Assembly (NCBI GenBank): GCA_025965735.1
Contig: JAOPWK010000076.1
Coordinates: 1 to 34,950 of the forward strand
Origin: Frankiales bacterium
GTDB taxonomy: Bacteria > Actinomycetota > Actinomycetes > Mycobacteriales > SCTD01
Length of the DNA stretch: 34,950 bases
Reading direction: 5' to 3'
Positions 3,324-34,950 of this stretch are shown one piece after another (position 1 is the first letter of the stretch; the number at the start of each line of letters is the position of its first letter). The notes beneath the pieces were generated by a model. It worked only from the letters and a program-made list of their open reading frames with translations. It made no database searches and was not told where the DNA came from. The translations under genes and the position numbers were made by a program.

Positions 3324-3486
3324 GGGGACCTCGAGGTCGTCGGCGGATCGTCCAGGGCCGGCCGGGTGCGGCGGCAGGCCTGAGCGTAGGACCAGAGGTG
3401 ATCGACCCGCGCCCGGGGTGGCAGACGTCACGCTGCTGCGGCGACCTCCCGCCGTGACACTGGAAGCCCCTGCTCCCGGAGTCCTC

Positions 3487-5664
3487 GTGCGCGCGCTCGC
3501 CCTGTTCAGCTTCCGCCGCCGGCGGCTCGTCCTGGCGCTCTGGCTGCTGCTGCTGGCCGTGGTCGGCGGCGCACTCGGCGCGGTGGGCGCCGGCTACGAC
3601 GACTCGTTCACGCTGCCGGACACCGAGAGCGCGCGCGCCTTCGAGCTGCTCGAGCGGGTGAGCCCGGCGGCCAGCGGCGACACCCTCACCGCAGTCTTCG
3701 CCGCGCAGGACGGCCGGGTCACCGATCCGGGCGTCCGACCGGCGGTGGAGGCGGTGCTGCGCGAGCTCGACGGGCTCGAGCAGGTCGTTGCGGTCGGCTC
3801 CCCGTACGACGCACCGCAGCAGGTCTCGCAGGACGGGCGCATCGCCTTCGCGACGCTGACCCTCACCGGGCTGGTGCCGAACGACGTCAGCCACGCCCAG
3901 GTCGACGAGGTGCTCGAGATCGCCGCTGAGCCGCGCGAGGGCGTGCGCGTGGAGGTCACCGGGCAGGCCGCGACGGCGCCTCCGGAGCAGGGCAAGGAGG
4001 AGCTGATCGGGCTGACGGCGGCGGCCGTCGTGCTGTTCCTGGTGTTCGGCTCGCTCACTGCGATGTCGCTCCCGCTCATCACGGCCGTGCTGTCCATCGC
4101 CGTCTCCCTCGCCGGCGTCGGCCTGCTCGCGAACCTCATCACCATCGCCACCTTCGCGCCGACGCTCTCGGTCCTGCTCGGGCTCGGCGTCGGCATCGAC
4201 TACGCGCTGTTCATCGTGACGCGGTACCGGCAGGGTCTGCTCGAGGGCAGGACACCCGAGGAGGCGACCGCCATCGCGATCGACACCTCCGGCCGTGCGG
4301 TGCTCTTCGCCGGCATCACCGTCTGCATCGCGCTTCTCGGCCTGTTCGCGCTGGGGCTGTCCTTCCTGTACGGCGTGGCCGTCGCGGCCTCTCTCGCCGT
4401 CGCGACCACCGTTCTGGCGTCGCTGACGCTGCTGCCCGCGCTGCTCGGGTTCTTCGGCCGCAAGGTGCTGCCGCGCCGCAAGCGCGCGCTGGCGACGGGC
4501 TCGCCCGAGGACCTGCAGGAGGAGACCCGCGGCTGGCAGCGCTGGGCCGCCTTCGTCGACCGCCGCCCCCGGCTGGTCGCCCTGACGGCGCTCGGCCTCA
4601 TGGTGCTCATCGCGCTGCCGCTGGCCAGCCTGCGCCTCGGCCTGACCGACCAGGGCAGCAACCCCGAGGACACCACGACGCGGCAGGGCTACGACCTGCT
4701 GGCCGAGGGCTTCGGCGCGGGCTTCAACGGGCCGCTGCTCGTCGTTACCGACCTCGGCGACACGGCCGATCCCGCGCCCACGCAGCAGCTGGTGAAGGCG
4801 CTGCAGGCCGATGAGGACGTGGCCGCCGTGACGCCCACCGTGTACCTTGGCGGCCCGCAGCCCGGCGTCCCCGCCGAGGGCGGCGTCGGCATCACCACCG
4901 TCTACCCGGCCTCCGCGCCGCAGGACGAGGCGACCAGCGACCTGGTGGAACGGGTGCGGACGGACCTCGTGCCGGACGCGCGCGGCGACAGCGGGCAGGA
5001 GCTGCTGGTCGGCGGCTCGACGGCGGTGTTCAACGACTTCAGCCAGGTCATCGCCGACAAGCTGCCGCTGTTCGTCGGCGTCGTGGTGCTGCTCAGCTTC
5101 CTTCTGCTCACGATGGTCTTCCGCAGCCTGGTCGTGAGCACGGTGGCGGCGCTGATGAACCTGCTGTCGGCCGCCGCGGCCTTCGGCGTCATCGTGGCGG
5201 TCTTCCAGTGGGGCTACGGCCTCTCGCTGATCGGCGTCGACCGTACCGGCCCGATCCTGGCGTTCCTGCCGGTGATCCTGTTCGCCATCCTGTTCGGCCT
5301 GTCCATGGACTACGAGGTCTTCCTGCTGTCACGCATCCACGAGGAGTGGCTGCACCGCGGCGACAACCGGCAGGCGGTCCTGCACGGCCTGGCCGCCACG
5401 GGCCGCACGATCACGGCGGCCGCGGCCATCATGGTGATGCTCTTCCTGGCCTTCGTGGTCGGACCCGACCTCACCATCAAGCTGTTCGGGCTCGGGCTCG
5501 CGGTGGCCGTGTTCCTGGACGCGGTCGTCATCCGCAGCGTGCTCGTGCCCGCCGTGATGCTCGTGCTGGGCAAGGTGAACTGGTACCTGCCGGCCTGGAT
5601 GGACCGCGTCCTGCCGCAGGTCTCGGTCGAGGGCCCCGCCCCGGAGCCGGCGCTCGCGGACTAG
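3487..5664 (+). CDS. MMPL/RND-superfamily membrane transporter (paralog 1)
   Basis: VRALALFSFRRRRLVLALWLLLLAVVGG N-terminus, GIDYALFIVTRYRQ and FGLSMDYEVFLLSRIHE motifs, and two 6-TM bundles. GTG 3487 has GGAG 5 nt upstream. The track ORF starts at 3295 and overlaps the divergent DUF47 gene; an alternative GTG is at 3454. Confidence 0.85.
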   Translation: MRALALFSFRRRRLVLALWLLLLAVVGGALGAVGAGYDDSFTLPDTESARAFELLERVSPAASGDTLTAVFAAQDGRVTDPGVRPAVEAVLRELDGLEQVVAVGSPYDAPQQVSQDGRIAFATLTLTGLVPNDVSHAQVDEVLEIAAEPREGVRVEVTGQAATAPPEQGKEELIGLTAAAVVLFLVFGSLTAMSLPLITAVLSIAVSLAGVGLLANLITIATFAPTLSVLLGLGVGIDYALFIVTRYRQGLLEGRTPEEATAIAIDTSGRAVLFAGITVCIALLGLFALGLSFLYGVAVAASLAVATTVLASLTLLPALLGFFGRKVLPRRKRALATGSPEDLQEETRGWQRWAAFVDRRPRLVALTALGLMVLIALPLASLRLGLTDQGSNPEDTTTRQGYDLLAEGFGAGFNGPLLVVTDLGDTADPAPTQQLVKALQADEDVAAVTPTVYLGGPQPGVPAEGGVGITTVYPASAPQDEATSDLVERVRTDLVPDARGDSGQELLVGGSTAVFNDFSQVIADKLPLFVGVVVLLSFLLLTMVFRSLVVSTVAALMNLLSAAAAFGVIVAVFQWGYGLSLIGVDRTGPILAFLPVILFAILFGLSMDYEVFLLSRIHEEWLHRGDNRQAVLHGLAATGRTITAAAAIMVMLFLAFVVGPDLTIKLFGLGLAVAVFLDAVVIRSVLVPAVMLVLGKVNWYLPAWMDRVLPQVSVEGPAPEPALAD

Positions 5665-27196: not shown

Positions 27197-28756
27197 CTAG
27201 TTCACGCCGCGCTCGCGGCCTTCCCAGTACGGCGCCCGCAGCTCGCGCTTGAGCACCTTCATCGCGCCGGACAGCGGCAGCGGCTCTTCCCGGAACGACA
27301 CCGACTTGGGCACCTTGTAGCCGGCGATCAGCCCTCGGCAGTGGTCGATCAGCTCGGCCTCGTCCGCCGCGTGCTCCGGCTTCAGGACGACCACGGCGTG
27401 CACGGCCTCGCCGTACACGTCGTGCGGGACGCCGATCACGGCCACCTGCGCGACGGCCGGGTGCGAGGCCACGGCCTGCTCGACCTCGGTGGAGTACACG
27501 TTCTCGCCGCCGGTGACGATCATGTCCTTGGTGCGGTCCACGAGGTAGACGAACCCCTCGTCGTCGACCCGGCCGGCGTCGCCGGAGTGGTACCAGCCGT
27601 CGCGGAACGCCTCCTCGGTCTCCTCCGGTCGCCGCCAGTACTCGCGCATGAACTGCCCGCCACGGATGCAGACCTCGCCCACCTGGCCGACCGGCACCGG
27701 GTCGCCGTGCTCGTCCTGGATCTGCACGACCGTCCCCTGCACCGGACGACCAGCGGACGCGAGCTTCTCGTCGCGCAGGTGGTCCTCCGGCATGAGGATG
27801 CTGACCAGAGCGGCGCTCTCGGTCATGCCGTAGCCCTGGTACAGCTCGAGCTGCGGCTGGTCCGCCCGCAGCCGGTCGAGCACCGGCCGGGGCATCGGGG
27901 AGGCGCCGTACGTCAGGCGCTGCAGCGAGCGCAGTCGCTCAGGGCGGTACTCCGGGTGCGCGAACGTCATCGCGAGCATCGTCGGGACCATGATCGTGTT
28001 GGTGCAGGCGTGCTCCTCACACGCCTTCATCACACCGCCGGCGTCGAAGACCGGCACCGTCACCAGCGACCCGCCGGTGGTCGGCATCGCCACGATCGCG
28101 GCCATCGACGCGGCGTGGAACATCGGCACCTGCACGAGGTAGACGTCGTCGCGCTCGATCCGCACGGCCATGCCGATGTGGTACGCCGTGAGCATCAGGT
28201 TCCGCTGCGTCAGCAGCACGCCCTTCGGCAGGCCGGTGGTGCCCCCGGTGTACATCAGCAGGCAGGCGTCCTCCTCCTCCGGCTCGGCCGGCACGACCTC
28301 CTCGCCTGCCGTGATGAGGTCCTCGTACCGGTGGTCGTGCGGCACGTCGCCAGCGCCCATGAGGACGACCTTCTGCACGCCCGCTGCCTCGCGCACGGAG
28401 TCGATGACGCCGGCGAACCACACGTCGACGAACACGACCTTGGTCGCCGAGTCGCTCAGCACGTGCGTCAGCTCGCGCGGCGCGAAGCGCAGGTTGAGCG
28501 GGTTGATGACCGCCGCTCCGAGCATCCCTGCGTGGTAGAGCTCCTCGAACTGCCGGCTGTTCAGCGACATCACCGCCACCCGGTCCCCGGGCTCGATGCC
28601 GAGCTCCTTGCGCATCGCGTTGGCCAGCCGCAGCACGCGCGACGCGTGCTCGCCGTACGACGTCGTCGTCCCGGCGCCCGTGTCGGTGAGGAAGGGCTGG
28701 GAGGCGTAGCGGTCGACGGCCGGCAGCAGCTGCCGGTGCCAGACGAGCTCCTTCAA
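27197..28756 (-). CDS. AMP-dependent acyl-CoA synthetase/ligase (FadD-like)
   Basis: LLMYTGGTTGLPKGVLLTQRNL is the AMP-binding motif, with WYHSGDAGRVDDEGFVYLVDRTKDMI and PLSGAMKVLKRELR. TTG start with AAGGAG 6 nt upstream. Confidence 0.88.
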   Translation of the reverse strand: MKELVWHRQLLPAVDRYASQPFLTDTGAGTTTSYGEHASRVLRLANAMRKELGIEPGDRVAVMSLNSRQFEELYHAGMLGAAVINPLNLRFAPRELTHVLSDSATKVVFVDVWFAGVIDSVREAAGVQKVVLMGAGDVPHDHRYEDLITAGEEVVPAEPEEEDACLLMYTGGTTGLPKGVLLTQRNLMLTAYHIGMAVRIERDDVYLVQVPMFHAASMAAIVAMPTTGGSLVTVPVFDAGGVMKACEEHACTNTIMVPTMLAMTFAHPEYRPERLRSLQRLTYGASPMPRPVLDRLRADQPQLELYQGYGMTESAALVSILMPEDHLRDEKLASAGRPVQGTVVQIQDEHGDPVPVGQVGEVCIRGGQFMREYWRRPEETEEAFRDGWYHSGDAGRVDDEGFVYLVDRTKDMIVTGGENVYSTEVEQAVASHPAVAQVAVIGVPHDVYGEAVHAVVVLKPEHAADEAELIDHCRGLIAGYKVPKSVSFREEPLPLSGAMKVLKRELRAPYWEGRERGVN

Positions 28757-28791
28757 GACGTGCTCCTTCGTGTGGCGGGCGTCACACGAAC

Positions 28792-29148
28792 CTAGGGGGC
28801 GAGCGGCAGCCAGGGCGAGAGATCAGCACGATCTCCCCACGTCTTCACCCGACCGTCACGTGCGGCGTCCGCCCAGGCCAGCCCCCCGGCGCACAGCTCG
28901 ACGAACGCGACGGGCTCCACCTCGACGACGTTCGGCGGAGTGCCCCGCGTGTGGCGCGGGCCCTCGACGCACTGCACGGCGGTGAAGGGCGGCACGCGCA
29001 CCTCCACGTGCCGGCCGGGCGCGACCGCGGCGAGCCGCTCGGCGAGGCCGCGCACGGCCAGCGCCAGGTCCGGCTTCTCGTACGACGCCGACAGCACGCG
29101 GTCGACCGCTTCCGCGACGAGGACCGGGTCGCGGTGCTTCGGGGGCAC
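28792..29148 (-). CDS. Sterol-carrier-family (SCP2-like) small protein
   Basis: From GTG 29148: VPPKHRDPVLVAEAVDRVLSASYEKPDLALAVRGLAERLAAVAPGRHVEVRVPPFTAVQCVEGPRHTRGTPPNVVE... resembles actinobacterial 'sterol carrier family protein'. It starts 8 nt after the purL stop. The start is uncertain. Confidence 0.55.
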   Translation of the reverse strand: MPPKHRDPVLVAEAVDRVLSASYEKPDLALAVRGLAERLAAVAPGRHVEVRVPPFTAVQCVEGPRHTRGTPPNVVEVEPVAFVELCAGGLAWADAARDGRVKTWGDRADLSPWLPLAP

Positions 29149-29156
29149 GCGAGCGG

Positions 29157-31508
29157 CTAGACGGCTCCGGTCGCGGGGGCGGTCGCGACCGGGTCGCTGG
29201 GCGCCGTGCCACCGGCGAGCGGGCCGAACAGCGCCGGGAGCGTCCGCTCGTGCGCCTCGCGCAGCTCCTCGAGCGGCAGCGACAGCACGTCCTGCACGTC
29301 CAGGGTGCTGCCGTCGGTGACGCCGATGCGGGTGCAGGGAAGGCCGCGGGCGTCGCACATCTCGGTGAAGCGCAGCTCCTCCGAGCGCGGCACCGTGACC
29401 ACCGCGCGACCGGCGGACTCGCTGAACAGCTGCACGAACGGGTCCATGTCGGCCGGCAGGACGATGCGGGCGCCGATGCCCTTCGCGAGCGCGGACTCCA
29501 CGAGCGACTGCGCGAGGCCGCCGTCGGCGAGGTCGTGCGCGGACGACAGCATCCCGTCGCGCGAGCCGCTGACCAGCACCTCCGCCAGCACGCGCTCGCG
29601 GTCGAGGTCGACCGCCGGCGGACGCCCGCCGAGGTGGCGGTGCTCGGCCCAGGCCCACTCCGAGCCGCCGAGCTCGTCGCGCGTCTCGCCCAGCAGCAGC
29701 ACCGACTCGCCCTCCTCGGCGAAGCCCATCGGCGTGCGGCGGGCGACGTCGTCGAGCAGCCCGAGCACGCCGATGACCGGCGTCGGGTTGATGGCGGTGC
29801 CGGCGGTGGAGTTGTAGAAGCTGACGTTGCCGCCTGTGACGGGAGTGGCCAGCGCGCGGCAGCCGTCAGCCAGGCCGCGGGTCGCCTCGGCGAACTGCCA
29901 CATCACGTCGGGGTCCTCGGGGCTGCCGAAGTTCAGGCAGTTGGTGACCGCGATCGGGACGGCGCCGGTGGCGGCGACGTTGCGGTAGGCCTCGGCCAGC
30001 GCGAGCTGCGCGCCGGCGTACGGGTCGAGCCGGGTGTAGCGGCCGTTCCCGTCCGTCGACAGCGCGATGCCGAGCCCCGACTCGGACAGGCGCACGACGC
30101 CGGCGTCCTCGGGCCAGGCCAGGACGGTGTCGCCGAGCACGATGCGGTCGTACTGCTCGACGACCCAGCGGCGGCTGCACAGGTTGGGCGAGGCCACCAT
30201 GCGCAGCAGCAGCTCCTGCAGCTCGTCGGTGCGCGGGTACGCCGGCAGGTCCGTGGACTGCAGCTCGTCCTGGTCGGCCGGACGCGAGTACGGCCGCTCG
30301 TAGACCGGGCCCTCGTCGGCGAGCGAGCCCGGCGGGACGTCCACCACGACCTCGCCGTGCCACTCGACGACAAGCCGGTCGCCCTCGACGACCTCACCGA
30401 TCGCGGTCGCGAGCACGCCCCACTTGTCCGCGATCGCCAGCACCGCAGGCAGGTTCTGCGGCGTGACGATCGCGAGCATGCGCTCCTGCGACTCGCTGGC
30501 CAGCACCTCGTGCGGCTCCATCGACGCCTCGCGCAGCGGCACGCGGTCCAGGTGCGCGCGCATGCCGCTCTTGCCGGCGGCGGCGGTCTCGGTGAGGGCG
30601 CACGTGAGGCCCGCGCCACCCAGGTCCTGGATGCCTTCGACGAGCTTCGCGTCGTACATCTCGAGGCAGGCCTCGATGAGCAGCTTCTCCATGAACGGGT
30701 CGCCGACCTGCACGCTCGGGCGCCGTGTAGGACCGTCGGCGTCGAACGTCGCGGAGGCCAGGACGGAGACGCCGCCGATGCCGTCACGGCCGGTCTTGGC
30801 ACCGAGCAGCACGACCACGTTGCCGACGCCGCGGGCTGCGGACAGCTGGATGCGGTCGACCGGCATGACGCCGAGGCAGAGCGCGTTGACCAGCGGGTTG
30901 CCCTGGTAGGTCGGGTCGAAGACGACCTCGCCGCCGATGTTGGGCAGCCCCAGGCAGTTCCCGTAGCCGCCGATGCCCGCGACGATGCCGGGCAGCACCC
31001 GCTGAGTGTCCGGGTGGTCGGCGTCGCCGAAGCGCAGCGGGTCCATCACGAGCACCGGACGGGCGCCCATCGTGAGGATGTCGCGCACGATGCCGCCGAT
31101 GCCGGTGGCCGCGCCCTGGTACGGCTCGACGTAGCTCGGGTGGTTGTGCGACTCCACCTTGAACGTCACGGCCAGGCCCTCACCGACGTCGACGACGCCG
31201 GCGTTCTCACCCATGCCGACGAGCATGCGGTCGCCCTTGGGCAGGTCGCCGAACTGGCGCAGGTGCACCTTGCTGCTCTTGTAGGAGCAGTGCTCGCTCC
31301 ACATGATCGAGTACATCGCCAATTCGGTCTGCGTCGGCCGGCGGCCGAGAACCTCGCGGATGGCGGTGTACTCGTCGTCCTTGAGGCCGAGCTCCAGGAA
31401 CGGCTGGTCGAGGTCGGGGGTCTCGACCGTGCGCGCGACGGTGTCGACGAAGGAGCGGCCGGACGGAAGCGGACCGGCGGAGTCGTTCGCCGCGTCGTAC
31501 TCGCTCAC
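29157..31508 (-). CDS. purL: Phosphoribosylformylglycinamidine synthase subunit II
   Basis: From GTG 31508: VSEYDAAND...[41 protein letters not shown]...ESHNHPS... The start overlaps the purQ stop (GTGA). The track ORF to 31907 is over-extended. Confidence 0.93.
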
Positions 31509-32185
31509 GCGTCCACCAGCGCCTTGAGCACCGAGGTGAAGAACACGAGGCCGTCGGTGCCAGCGGTGCCGATGAGGTCCTCCACCGCGTGCTCGGGGTG
31601 CGGCATGATCCCGACCACGTTGCCGCGCTCGTTGCGGATGCCGGCGATGTCGCGGGCGCTGCCGTTCGGGTTCGTGCCGAGGTAGCGGGCGATGACCCGG
31701 CCGCTGGCCTCGAGCTCGTCGAGCACCTCGGTGGAGGCGACGTAGTTGCCCTCGCCGTTCTTCACCGGCACGACGACCTCCTGGCCGCTCTCGTAGCCGT
31801 TGGTCCATGCGGAGTCGGTGCTCTCGATGCGCAGCCGCTGGTCGCGGTTGACGAAGTGCAGGTGCGCGTTGCGGGTGAGCGCGCCGGGCAGCAGACCGCT
31901 CTCGCACAGCACCTGGAAGCCGTTGCAGATGCCGAGCACCGGCAGCCCCCGTCTCGCCTGCTCGACCACGCTGGTCATGGCCGGCGCGAAGCGCGCGATG
32001 GCACCTGCACGCAGGTAGTCGCCGTAGGAGAAGCCACCCGGAAGGACGACCGCGTCGACGCCCTGCAGGTCGGCGTCGCCGTGCCAGAGCGCGACCGGCT
32101 CACCGCCTGCCAGCCGCACCGCGCGCTGGGCGTCCCGGTCGTCCAGGCTGCCGGGGAAGGTCACCACGCCGATGCGAGCCGTCAC
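31505..32185 (-). CDS. purQ: Phosphoribosylformylglycinamidine synthase subunit I (glutaminase)
   Basis: [35 protein letters not shown]...[14 protein letters not shown]...[12 protein letters not shown]...MPHPEH contains the Cys-His-Glu triad context. Confidence 0.93.
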
Positions 32186-32195
32186 CCGCCCGAGG

Positions 32196-32699
32196 CTACC
32201 GGGGCGCGGGAGCGTCCTGCATGCGCTCGTCGTCCGACCAGGGCCCGTGCTCGGTCCTCGGCTTGCCCTCGGTGAGCTTCTTGATGGGCGCGTCGTCGAG
32301 CCACTCGAGCTGCTTCTCGAGGTGGACGACCGTGCCGACCTGCGGACGGCTGGTGAAGGTCACCTTGTCGACCAGCGCGCGCATCAGCTGGATGCCGCGG
32401 CCGTCCTCGGCGCTCGGCTCGGCCTCCGCGTGGCCCTTGACGCTCCCGTCGAAGCCGGCCCCGCGGTCGATGACCTCGATGACGCAGACGGTGCCGTCGA
32501 TGCCGGCCGACACCTCGTACTCGTCGGTCTCGGCGGCGTGGTCCAGCACGTTCGTGCACGCCTCGGTGAGCGCGAGCTCGATCGCGTGCACGACCTCCTC
32601 GGTGACGCCGAGGACGGTCATGCCGTTCTTCAGGACGGCGCGGGCGATCGGGACGGAGTACTCGTCGCGCGGCAGCGCCAGCGTGAGCTTGTACTCCAC
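32196..32699 (-). CDS. RsbW/SpoIIAB-like anti-sigma-factor serine kinase (HATPase_c_2) inserted between purS and purQ
   Basis: (V)[31 protein letters not shown]...[15 protein letters not shown] (N-box)...VIDRGAGF (G1)...[12 protein letters not shown] (G2). GTG lies 9 nt after the purS stop, and its own stop lies 10 nt before the purQ ATG. Confidence 0.8.
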
Positions 32700-32708
32700 G
32701 CCGTCGGC

Positions 32709-32966
32709 CTATCCGCCGTGCCGGGGGCGCACGCGGAAGTCCTCGATGACCGGGTTGGCCAGCAGCGTCTCGGCCATCTTGGTCGCCAGCTCGAGCGCCG
32801 CCGTCTCGTCCTCGGCCTCGAGGGACAGCTCGACGTGCTTGCCGATCCGCAGGCTGCTCGCGGCCGGCAGGCCCAGCGAGGGCAGGGCGTTCAGGACCGC
32901 CTGCCCTGCCGGGTCGAGGATCTCGGGCTTGAGCATCACGTCGACGACGACCTCGTGCACTGCCAT
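32709..32966 (-). CDS. purS: Phosphoribosylformylglycinamidine synthase subunit PurS
   Basis: MAVHEVVVDVMLKPEILDPAGQAVLNALPSLGL...VELSLEAEDETAALELATKMAETLLANPVIEDFRV is the PurS signature. Confidence 0.92.
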   Translation of the reverse strand: MAVHEVVVDVMLKPEILDPAGQAVLNALPSLGLPAASSLRIGKHVELSLEAEDETAALELATKMAETLLANPVIEDFRVRPRHGG

Positions 32967-33017: not shown

Positions 33018-33527
33018 CTAGCTGTAGGTGAAGACGAGCTTGCCGTCGGCGTTCGGGCCGCCGAGGAAGTTGCAGGCGCCGATGACGAGCGTCGTCGCCT
33101 TCTTCACCTTGATGACGGCCTTCTCCACGTTGTCCGTGCCGAGCGAGCCGTCGCTCCCGCTGACCTCGCCACCGGTGGTCGTGCCGCTGCCGATGCCGAG
33201 CACCTTGCCCTTGCCGTCCATGACGGTGATGTCCCAGTCGCCGGCGAAGCCGGTCAGGTCGACCTGGAGGGTGCCGGCGCCGGTGGTCTTGATGGTCTGG
33301 AACGTCGTGCTGATGCCCTCGAAGGCCGGGTCGGCGCAGCTGTTCGTCCCGTCCAGCGCCTCCTCGCCGACGAGCGGCAGCGGGATCGGCGCGTGCTGCA
33401 TCGACCACTCGACGACGATCGGCTTCGGCTTGGGCTTGGGCTTCGGCGGGGCGGCGACGGCGGGAGCGAGGGCGCCGGCCGCGACGACGAGCGTGAGAGC
33501 CGCAGGGAGCGCCTTGCGAACGGTCAT
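33018..33527 (-). CDS. Small secreted protein with a (PK)4 linker and a PPC-like beta-sandwich signature
   Basis: From ATG 33527, with GGAGG 8 nt upstream: MTVRKALPAALTLVVAAGALAPAVAAPPKPKPKPKP..., then ...LQVDLTGFAGDWDITVMDGKGKVLG...ATTLVIGACNFLGG... Confidence 0.65.
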   Translation of the reverse strand: MTVRKALPAALTLVVAAGALAPAVAAPPKPKPKPKPIVVEWSMQHAPIPLPLVGEEALDGTNSCADPAFEGISTTFQTIKTTGAGTLQVDLTGFAGDWDITVMDGKGKVLGIGSGTTTGGEVSGSDGSLGTDNVEKAVIKVKKATTLVIGACNFLGGPNADGKLVFTYS

Positions 33528-33645
33528 GGGGACTACCTCCGGGACGACTGCTGGGTGATCGAGTGCCGGAGGAGTTCGACGTCCCGCGTCCAGCACCTGC
33601 TTGCCGCTCGAGGGTCGATCGGTGCCGCCACGAGGACGACCGGCG

Positions 33646-34950
33646 TCAGCCCGCGGTGGTGAAGCGCAGGACCGGCCCCAGCGGCGCGCACAGTCCGGCG
33701 GCGTTGCAGGAGCGGGCAGCCCACTCGTACGTCGTCGCGGGACGCAGCCGGTCGCCGCCGATTCGGTAGGAGACCGACGTGCCGGACACGCCCTTGACGC
33801 CCGCACCGTTCAGGACGTCCCACGTCGTGGCACCGCGCGTGCGCACGTGGAAGCGCGTCTCGAGGACCCCTCCGACGCGGTCGCGCCCGAGCACGCTCAG
33901 CACCGGTGCGAGCGGGACCCCGTTCGCAGCGGGAGCCGGCGCGTGACGCGTGGCGGGCACGGGGGCGTTGACCGTCCGCTTGAGCGACAGCACGCGGCGG
34001 ACGCTGGCAGCCGCTGCGGCACGTGGGTACTCCCCGCGCGAGATCGCGGCGGCGACGGCGTCGACCACCGGCCGCGGACCCGGCCCGGGGTCGATCAAGA
34101 CGACGTCCGCGCCGGCCCGCAGAGCGCGCACCGCAGCCTTGGCCGGCGTCAGGCCCAGCCCCCGGATCGCGCCCATCGACAGGGAGTCGGTCATGAGCAC
34201 GCGGCTCCCGCCGGCCCGGGCGCGCAGGTAACGGTAGGCCGGCGCCGACAGCGTCGCTGGGGTGCCGGCTCCGGTCAGCCCCGGCACGGTCAGGTGCCCG
34301 ACCATGACCGGGACGCTGCCGGCGCGCAGCACCGCGTCGAACGGCTTGAGGTCGCGCCCCTCGAGCACGGCGAGCGGCGGCGTCACCGCCGCGCCGTCGT
34401 GCGTGTTGACCGCCTGCCCGTGACCGGGCCAGTGCTTGACGACAGGGACGACACGGGAGGAGCGGATGCCCGCTGACCAGGCCCCGGCGTAGGCGCCGGC
34501 TGCGGCCGGGTCAGCCGAGAAGGCGCGGTCGGTGCGCTGCAGGTAGTAGCCGCGGACGCGGAGGTCGGCCACCGGTCCCAGGTCGAGGTCGACGCCGAGC
34601 CGCCGCATGCCCTGGCCGTAGGCCGCCGCGATGCTGCGGACCTGCTCGGGGGTGCGACGCCGGCCGTGGTCGCCGGCGGACGGCAGCGGGCCGAGCACGG
34701 GGCGCAGCCGCTGCACCTGGCCACCCTCCTCGTCGGACGCGACGAACGGGACCGTGACGCCCGTGGCGCGCAGCCGCGCGATCCGCTGGGCGAGGTCCGC
34801 GGGCGGCCGGCCGAACAGGATGACGCCGCCGAGGCCCTCGCGCAGGTGCGGCAGCGCGCGGTCGGTGCGGTTCATGTCGTAGCCGGCGAGCACGAGCTGC
34901 GCCGCGAGCCGGCGCGGCGACCAGCCGGCGAGGTCGTCGGCCGGAGCGGC
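33646..34950 (-). CDS. Glycoside hydrolase family 3 (NagZ-like beta-N-acetylhexosaminidase) with a C-terminal beta-rich extension. The 5' end is outside the window.
   Basis: ...LAAQLVLAGYDM...GGVILFG...VASDEEGGQVQRL...DLGPVADL...RAFS...VKHWPGHG...VMVGH...LMTDSLSMGAI are GH3 N-domain motifs. The frame is open to 34950; the track start at 34893 is an internal GTG. Confidence 0.82.
   Translation of the reverse strand, partial: AAPADDLAGWSPRRLAAQLVLAGYDMNRTDRALPHLREGLGGVILFGRPPADLAQRIARLRATGVTVPFVASDEEGGQVQRLRPVLGPLPSAGDHGRRRTPEQVRSIAAAYGQGMRRLGVDLDLGPVADLRVRGYYLQRTDRAFSADPAAAGAYAGAWSAGIRSSRVVPVVKHWPGHGQAVNTHDGAAVTPPLAVLEGRDLKPFDAVLRAGSVPVMVGHLTVPGLTGAGTPATLSAPAYRYLRARAGGSRVLMTDSLSMGAIRGLGLTPAKAAVRALRAGADVVLIDPGPGPRPVVDAVAAAISRGEYPRAAAAASVRRVLSLKRTVNAPVPATRHAPAPAANGVPLAPVLSVLGRDRVGGVLETRFHVRTRGATTWDVLNGAGVKGVSGTSVSYRIGGDRLRPATTYEWAARSCNAAGLCAPLGPVLRFTTAG

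Follow-up and report, generated by a model that had tools for sequence, protein, structure and literature searches.

An orphan RsbW/SpoIIAB-type kinase gene ahead of purQ in many Actinomycetes and its candidate role as a trans-acting partner-switching kinase

A switch-kinase gene between purS and purQ

The window, meaning the whole stretch of DNA that was analysed (34,950 nt), comes from a 3.17-Mb metagenome-assembled genome (MAG), 89% complete, of an uncultured family (f1) in the GTDB order Mycobacteriales. It contains a co-directional cluster on the minus strand, in which a GH3 hydrolase gene and a small gene are followed by purS, an orphan kinase gene, purQ, purL, an SCP_3 gene, an AMP-binding (FadD-like) gene, purF and purM (Table 1). 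The three subunits of FGAM synthase are assigned securely, as PurS, PurQ and PurL each score above the curated Pfam or NCBIfam cutoff of their family. The small gene upstream of purS (ORF 33018..33806) has no Pfam match. The SCP_3 (bacterial sterol-carrier-like) and FadD-like genes occupy positions 27197-29160 of the minus strand, between purL and purF, in a cluster that is otherwise purine-only.

Table 1. Features of the purS-kinase-purQ-purL region and of the kinase protein, in window coordinates
Feature	Position	Strand	Basis
purS (FGAM synthase PurS subunit, 85 aa)	32709..32966	-	Pfam PF02700, 91.4 bits; NCBIfam NF004630, 87.5 bits (cutoff 75)
purS-kinase intergenic gap, 9 nt	32700..32708	-	read from sequence; no promoter- or terminator-like site found
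RsbW/SpoIIAB-like serine kinase gene, orphan, HATPase_c_2, 167 aa, GTG start	32196..32699	-	Pfam PF13581, 73.5 bits, 2e-20
N-box, aa 42-56 (E46, N50, H54)	32532..32576	-	invariant in alignments A1 and A2; aligns with SpoIIAB SEAVTNAIIHG
G1 box DRGAGF, aa 78-83 (D78, G80, G82)	32451..32468	-	invariant in both alignments
G2 box GRGIQL, aa 100-105 (G100, G102)	32385..32402	-	invariant in both alignments
C-terminal tail, aa 132-167 (36 aa)	32199..32306	-	AlphaFold2: helix 138-143; pLDDT <50 at 150-152 and 155-167
HGPWS motif in tail, aa 151-155	32235..32249	-	instance of the G[PG]W motif
kinase-purQ intergenic gap, 10 nt	32186..32195	-	read from sequence
purQ (FGAM synthase glutaminase subunit, 226 aa)	31505..32185	-	NCBIfam NF002957, 318 bits (cutoff 212)
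purL, ~783 aa, start overlapping purQ stop	~29157..31508	-	Pfam FGAR-AT_linker and two AIRS/AIRS_C pairs; ORF coordinates

Is the kinase gene a true member of the pur operon? Judged by its composition (GC3 0.99, GC2 0.42), its dN/dS of 0.13-0.43 against close relatives, its HATPase_c_2 match and its N-box, G1 and G2 motifs, the ORF is a genuine gene. The ORF coordinates bear out the preliminary description, made from the sequence of the window, which had placed this gene between purS and purQ with gaps of 9 nt and 10 nt and had concluded that it must be co-transcribed with its neighbours. A sequence scan found no promoter or terminator belonging to the kinase gene, but such a scan is weak for high-GC actinobacteria, and the length of the gaps is the stronger argument: they leave a promoter or terminator no room, so that co-transcription with purS, purQ and purL appears close to unavoidable in the source genome. 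The claim of co-transcription is supported to that extent. Upstream of purS, an Rfam search for a riboswitch or other RNA element gave tRNAs only.

What kind of protein does this gene encode? The Pfam HATPase_c_2 model (PF13581, cutoff 27.4 bits) matches residues 14-128, and E46, N50, H54, D78, G80, G82, G100 and G102 are invariant in alignments of 18 and 43 sequences. R20 is invariant among relatives as well and is aligned with an Arg of RsbW in the profile-versus-PDB alignment; the 26:26 register of the alignment suggests that it coincides with R20 of SpoIIAB, the partner-docking Arg. When the family profile was compared with the PDB, RsbW (4.8e-13) and SpoIIAB (~6e-12) were recovered, and their N, G1 and G2 boxes lined up with those of the profile. 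An AlphaFold2 model, built with a 43-sequence alignment, predicts the core (residues 1-130) confidently, with block-mean pLDDT mostly 81-96; the exception is the ATP lid (residues 81-100), which is floppy. The best Foldseek matches of the model are RsbW (6m36; TM 0.92 on target, rmsd 1.6), SpoIIAB (1til, 1l0o) and UsfX of Mycobacterium tuberculosis (8ih8, 8jzt). The top 21 rows are RsbW, SpoIIAB and UsfX, bar one Leptospira entry (9qih), and histidine kinases rank lower, with an rmsd of ~10. The predicted fold is a stand-alone Bergerat ATP-binding domain that lacks a DHp/HisKA domain. By motifs, profile and modelled fold, the protein is thus an RsbW/SpoIIAB-type switch kinase, as the preliminary description had read from the N-box, DRGAGF and GRGIQL motifs, and it would be expected to be catalytically competent.

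The likeness is one of type and not of orthology. The kinase shares with Bacillus subtilis RsbW (6m36/6m37) and SpoIIAB (1til, 1l0o, 1th8), which are stand-alone GHKL proteins of ~130 aa, the fold (TM 0.77-0.92 on target), the N, G1 and G2 boxes, and an Arg at the docking position. However, the identity is just 22-24%, with 33-42 bits against NCBIfam equivalog cutoffs of 135-155, and the present kinase differs in having no adjacent STAS or sigma gene, in lying inside a purine operon, and in carrying an extra tail of ~36 aa. Across the RsbW, SpoIIAB and RsbA equivalog and subfamily models (TIGR01924, NF003144, TIGR01925, NF041045), scores of 32.9-50.7 bits fall far under the cutoffs of 135-210, which rules out an orthologue proper of any of the three. 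A mitochondrial GHKL kinase of the PDK/BCKDK type was likewise rejected: the protein of 167 aa has its GHKL core from residue 3 and no N-terminal four-helix bundle, and no PDK/BCKDK-type chain is found among the 50 listed Foldseek matches. M. tuberculosis UsfX (8ih8, 8jzt) and the RsbW domain of Rv1364c (3ke6) have the same fold and belong to the same phylum, but UsfX is a non-kinase anti-SigF factor encoded beside sigF and Rv1364c is a fused multidomain protein, unlike the present kinase.

RsbW-like kinases with an output other than an adjacent sigma factor are known from the IcfG/Slr1861 system of Synechocystis and from BtrW of Bordetella. In systems of this kind STAS and PP2C genes cluster with the kinase gene, whereas the present kinase stands alone in a biosynthetic operon. 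Neither a STAS match nor a SigB/F-type sigma match was found on the window's contig, so the remark in the preliminary description that no such gene lies nearby was correct, and the kinase is not encoded beside a STAS antagonist or sigma factor of its own.

The preliminary description had also pointed to a C-terminal tail of about 35 residues, and this is present (aa 132-167). It is predicted by AlphaFold2 to form a short helix followed by disorder. Among relatives, tails have a median length of 33 aa (range 14-49, n=59) in the members linked to pur genes and 12 aa (range 1-20, n=21) in the members that are not, and 22 of 59 pur-linked tails (from f1, f24, f53 and Frankia) contain a G[PG]W motif, against none of 22 other tails; in both counts the members are related by descent and so are not phylogenetically independent. 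The motif is missing in many pur-linked lineages, including Streptosporangiaceae, f46 and f52.

Gene order and gene loss across Actinomycetota

Is the interrupted purS-purQ order a peculiarity of the source genome? Within its family, an orthologue of the kinase is found in 25 of 35 sampled genomes, at 51-93% identity, and at all checked loci its place is either between purS and purQ or immediately ahead of purQ-purL. A profile search finds the kinase family in 119 of 401 genomes of the class Actinomycetes. The order purS-kinase-purQ-purL or kinase-purQ-purL occurs in at least 15 GTDB families of this class, at 31-60% protein identity: f1, f16, f21, f24, f32, f33, f35, f40, f42, f45, f46, f52, f53, f58 and f66, where the families beyond f1 and f16 come from the inspection of 49 loci in other genomes. 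All seven checked loci of Streptosporangiaceae are pur-linked; in this family (f21, whose cluster includes Streptosporangium roseum) the order is purS, 171 nt, kinase, 226 nt, purQ, purL. In Frankia (genus g165 of f58; F. casuarinae CcI3, Q2J4N1, and F. alni, CAJ65346) the order is kinase-purQ-purL and purS was not found directly upstream, and the gene of Acidothermaceae strain B102 (f24) is pur-linked too. The intergenic gaps vary between families from ~10 nt to ~250 nt.

Several families of the class keep the gene elsewhere. In Streptomyces (f43) it follows copper-chaperone genes and precedes pepP, with a gene for a PP2C-type phosphatase two genes away; a Streptomyces family member from S. 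ficellus (WP_156693428, ~38% identity) is near copper-chaperone genes and a PP2C gene. It lies beside a PP2C gene in f36. In Geodermatophilaceae (f18) it is divergent from a STAS gene and a bacteriophytochrome-PP2C gene, and in a "Frankiaceae bacterium" MAG (f37) it is beside prcA, prcB and pup. No homologue was found in the sampled Mycobacteriaceae-like families (0/35 in f5; 0/34 and 0/22 in f12). Other classes of the phylum have homologues of 41-54% identity, which are ubiquitous in f73 (21/21) and f78 (17/17), and none of the 29 loci checked in these classes is pur-linked.

Some of these other settings deserve a description of their own, with gene names read from the sequences in f73, f78 and f37. 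In f73 (loci L192, L194, L200 and L205; 42-54% identity) the order is pfk, a threonine-aldolase-like gene, kinase, thiO and thiS. An orphan kinase thus again stands ahead of a biosynthetic operon, here for thiamine, and AIR is a precursor common to thiamine and purine synthesis. The neighbour of the f78 homologue is a GlpC-like Fe-S gene. In f37 (L177:2927-6930) the orthologue lies between a gene resembling GAF/ANTAR regulators and prcA/prcB/pup, and its long tail has been lost. In Blastococcus-type genomes of f18 (L031:1342-4420 and L035:1345-4417) a fusion of a bacteriophytochrome N-terminus with a PP2C (SpoIIE-type) domain, 741-771 aa long, is followed by a STAS gene; divergent from this module is the closest homologue of the kinase that is not pur-linked. 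The module looks like a light-controlled partner-switching system.

How old is the linkage? A phylogenetic tree places 52 pur-linked genes in one supported clade (95/87). The genes of f37 are nested within this clade, which indicates a secondary move away from the pur locus to the proteasome genes, and the tail in this branch is just 15-17 aa long. The pur-linked genes of Streptosporangiaceae, the genes of f18 and f36 and those of Streptomyces branch outside the clade, and the backbone is without resolution. From the spread over many families and from the tree it follows that the linkage is old in the class Actinomycetes and not peculiar to the window; it is probably ancestral for the class.

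A local or recent insertion is therefore ruled out, since the order is common to most of f1 and to many other families. The preliminary description had presented the gene as an unusual local insertion, and this did not hold up: the order is the norm in many families, including Streptosporangiaceae and Frankia. It had allowed that such an order might prove to be widespread and to have an assigned role already; the order is indeed widespread, but no assigned role was found in the literature, as literature searches that combined purS or purQ with anti-sigma factors or RsbW, or partner switching with purine synthesis, returned nothing on the arrangement. As to its question of whether the gene always sits between purS and purQ, it does not: purS is inverted in some genomes (g2, g23) and was not found directly upstream in others (Frankia). 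For much of the Actinomycetes such an arrangement is ordinary, and public Frankia and Streptosporangium genomes contain it without remark.

Five genomes of f1 (G003, G090, G103, G141 and G250; 91-100% complete) have no kinase gene in the operon, and purS is directly beside purQ. No homologue was found anywhere in these five genomes at E<=1e-8. The gene has therefore been lost cleanly several times, with purS, purQ and purL left intact; at least 4-5 losses have occurred within f1, all by clean deletion. Thus, the kinase gene is dispensable, and an obligatory extra subunit of FGAM synthase is ruled out. The contiguity of purS, purQ and purL, which the preliminary description called canonical, is seen as purS-purQ adjacency in these five genomes, but the interrupted order is very common in Actinomycetes. 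The FGAM synthase subunits bear no mark of the loss: no alignment column separates the two groups in PurS and PurQ (17 genomes with the kinase against 5 without) or in PurL (5 against 5), and the one near-discriminating column, in PurQ, is a conservative I/L/F position.

The position of purS has also changed within the family. In genera g2 and g23 it is inverted and the kinase-purQ-purL order is kept. At six loci of these genera (L043, L044, L045, L018, L038 and L039) purS is divergent from purQ-purL, with or without the kinase gene, so that the three FGAM synthase genes do not form one operon there. In a further genome, G010 (MAG MFD02840; L021, L023 and L030), kinase, purQ and purL, which lie on a single contig, each appear broken up into several frames. 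As purQ and purL are broken in the same way as the kinase gene, the frame breaks are most likely assembly indel errors and not signs of a pseudogene.

Candidate partners in the source genome

Which protein could be the partner of the kinase? The source genome has seven STAS matches, ~23 HATPase_c_2 matches above cutoff and a dozen PP2C-type matches. It has one true SigB/F-type sigma factor (contig C277), which adjoins a UshX/UsfX-like anti-sigma factor that lacks the N-box Asn. On contig C256 (3447-4294, plus strand) a BldG-type STAS gene (3447-3788) is followed by a gene for an ApgA-like HATPase_c_2 protein without the N-box Asn and the G2 box, and by its motifs this neighbour is likely to be a pseudokinase. 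Since neither the neighbour of the BldG-type STAS nor the anti-sigma factor beside the sigma gene has the full motifs, an intact BldG kinase would have to be encoded elsewhere. The pur-linked kinase is not the sole possible one, as other small HATPase_c_2 proteins of the genome have intact motifs. On contig C252 (8737-10166, minus strand), PP2C, HATPase_c_2 and STAS domains are found head to tail in one frame of 704-840 aa, so that phosphatase, kinase and antagonist are fused in one protein, as in M. tuberculosis Rv1364c.

In Streptomyces coelicolor, BldG is a STAS protein shared by the RsbW homologues UshX/PrsH, RsfA and SCO7328, which act on it in trans (PMC8346170), and cross-talk in partner switching is regarded as common (PMC4255298). 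The source genome has a BldG-type STAS as well, and the pur-linked kinase is, like the S. coelicolor kinases, an actinobacterial RsbW homologue. Across the class, BldG-type STAS sequences agree at 85-95% identity; 278 of 401 genomes carry one, among them all 118 kinase-positive genomes of the class sample, and in f12 both proteins are absent (0/22). This nested distribution is compatible with a BldG partnership, though as weak evidence, since related genomes do not count as independent and the kinase is far less widespread than the BldG type. Within f1, a comparison of five genomes with the kinase and five without it found no STAS family that tracks its presence, and the BldG-type STAS is present in all five kinase-less genomes too. 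In G019, a 100% complete, kinase-positive genome, the single canonical stand-alone STAS is of the BldG type.

Why is a switch kinase kept in a purine operon?

The best explanation, for which the chances seem to us about even, is that the gene encodes a partner-switching serine kinase that acts in trans, with a dose tied to transcription of the pur operon and the BldG-type STAS as its first candidate target. The kinase belongs to an old orthologous group across Actinomycetota whose usual and probably ancestral home in Actinomycetes is directly upstream of purQ. A transcript shared with purS, purQ and purL would make the amount of kinase in the cell follow the expression of the pur operon. It would bind and serine-phosphorylate a STAS antagonist encoded elsewhere, for which the nearly invariant BldG-type STAS is the best candidate, and through phosphorylation of the STAS protein or through direct binding it may feed into a partner-switching network to which the single SigB/F-type sigma factor and about twelve PP2C phosphatases belong. 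This explanation is favoured by the relatives outside the pur locus, which adjoin STAS and/or PP2C genes in Geodermatophilaceae, Streptomyces and f36. Against it, no STAS, PP2C or sigma gene is near the pur-linked loci, and the long tail with its GPW motif, limited to pur-linked members, is left without an explanation if the role is purely in trans. The fold and motifs, the tight operon, the wide conservation of the gene order, the dispensability of the gene and the nested distribution are observed, while kinase activity, the identity of the target and a regulatory meaning of the coupling to purine genes are inferred. The preliminary description had suggested that purine or ATP status might be coupled to partner switching, which is plausible as a hypothesis.

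Does the position of the gene have any regulatory meaning? An ordinary partner-switching kinase might have landed in the pur operon of an early actinomycete and stayed because rearrangements within an essential operon are selected against, so that co-transcription would carry no regulatory message. We regard such a frozen accident as possible but rather unlikely. It would fit the repeated losses within a single family and the varied settings of the homologues, which range from STAS and phytochrome-PP2C genes and proteasome genes to positions upstream of thiO-thiS and beside the glpC-like gene, and the variation of the gaps between families suggests that tight coupling is not required. On the other hand, chance alone accounts poorly for a position kept over at least 15 families at 31-60% protein identity, for a kinase-purQ link that outlasts the rearrangements displacing purS, or for a tail extension specific to the pur context.

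The kinase might instead act directly on FGAM synthase or another purine enzyme, with the GPW tail docking on PurQ, PurL or PurS and with phosphorylation, or binding dependent on ATP/ADP, tuning the flux; the preliminary description, too, had suggested a moonlighting role towards the FGAM synthase complex. The place directly upstream of purQ is conserved even where purS is inverted (g2, g23) or is not directly upstream (Frankia), long tails and the G[PG]W motif are found in pur-linked members only, and the f37 branch, nested in the pur-linked clade, has a short tail after its relocation. Direct action is nevertheless distinctly improbable, given that the gene was lost cleanly from five genomes of the same family with purS-purQ-purL intact, that no column of PurS, PurQ or PurL tracks the kinase, and that the motif is missing in many pur-linked lineages. 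The wide gaps in Streptosporangium, the lack of pur linkage among close homologues in other classes, and the absence from PurS, as read from its sequence, of a DSxG-type phosphorylation motif also speak against it. The bolder proposal that the pur-linked branch is a dedicated post-translational regulator of FGAM synthase, whose tail docks on PurQ/PurL and whose kinase domain phosphorylates or clamps the complex according to the ATP/ADP ratio, is to be considered a long shot.

A different question is whether phosphate is transferred at all. RsbW and SpoIIAB bind their partners differently according to the bound nucleotide, and the non-phosphorylating UsfX is among the fold matches; the protein might therefore be a nucleotide-sensing binding protein that sequesters its partner according to the ATP/ADP ratio and is not a kinase. 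However, no member of the family deviates in the N-box Glu or Asn or in either G box, while the non-kinase relatives in the source genome have lost such motifs, and this possibility is very improbable.

Actinobacteria encode many RsbW-like kinases, most of them orphans, and little is known of how they are wired. The pur-linked kinase defines a single, easily recognised orthologous group that is conserved across the phylum and that, in at least 15 Actinomycetes families, has a fixed place in the operon of one purine-synthesis enzyme. Carriers that can be cultivated include Streptosporangium, Frankia and a strain of Acidothermaceae, and a few purified proteins would suffice to test the question directly. 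A connection between nucleotide pools and actinomycete differentiation has long been drawn. If the dose of the kinase does follow pur transcription and its target is a BldG-type protein that it phosphorylates, purine supply would be tied to the sigma network for stress and development. If, instead, it acts on FGAM synthase, purine synthesis would be controlled in a new way, with direct nucleotide feedback in actinomycetes, and the kinase would be the first RsbW-type switch kinase to act on a biosynthetic enzyme of its own operon.
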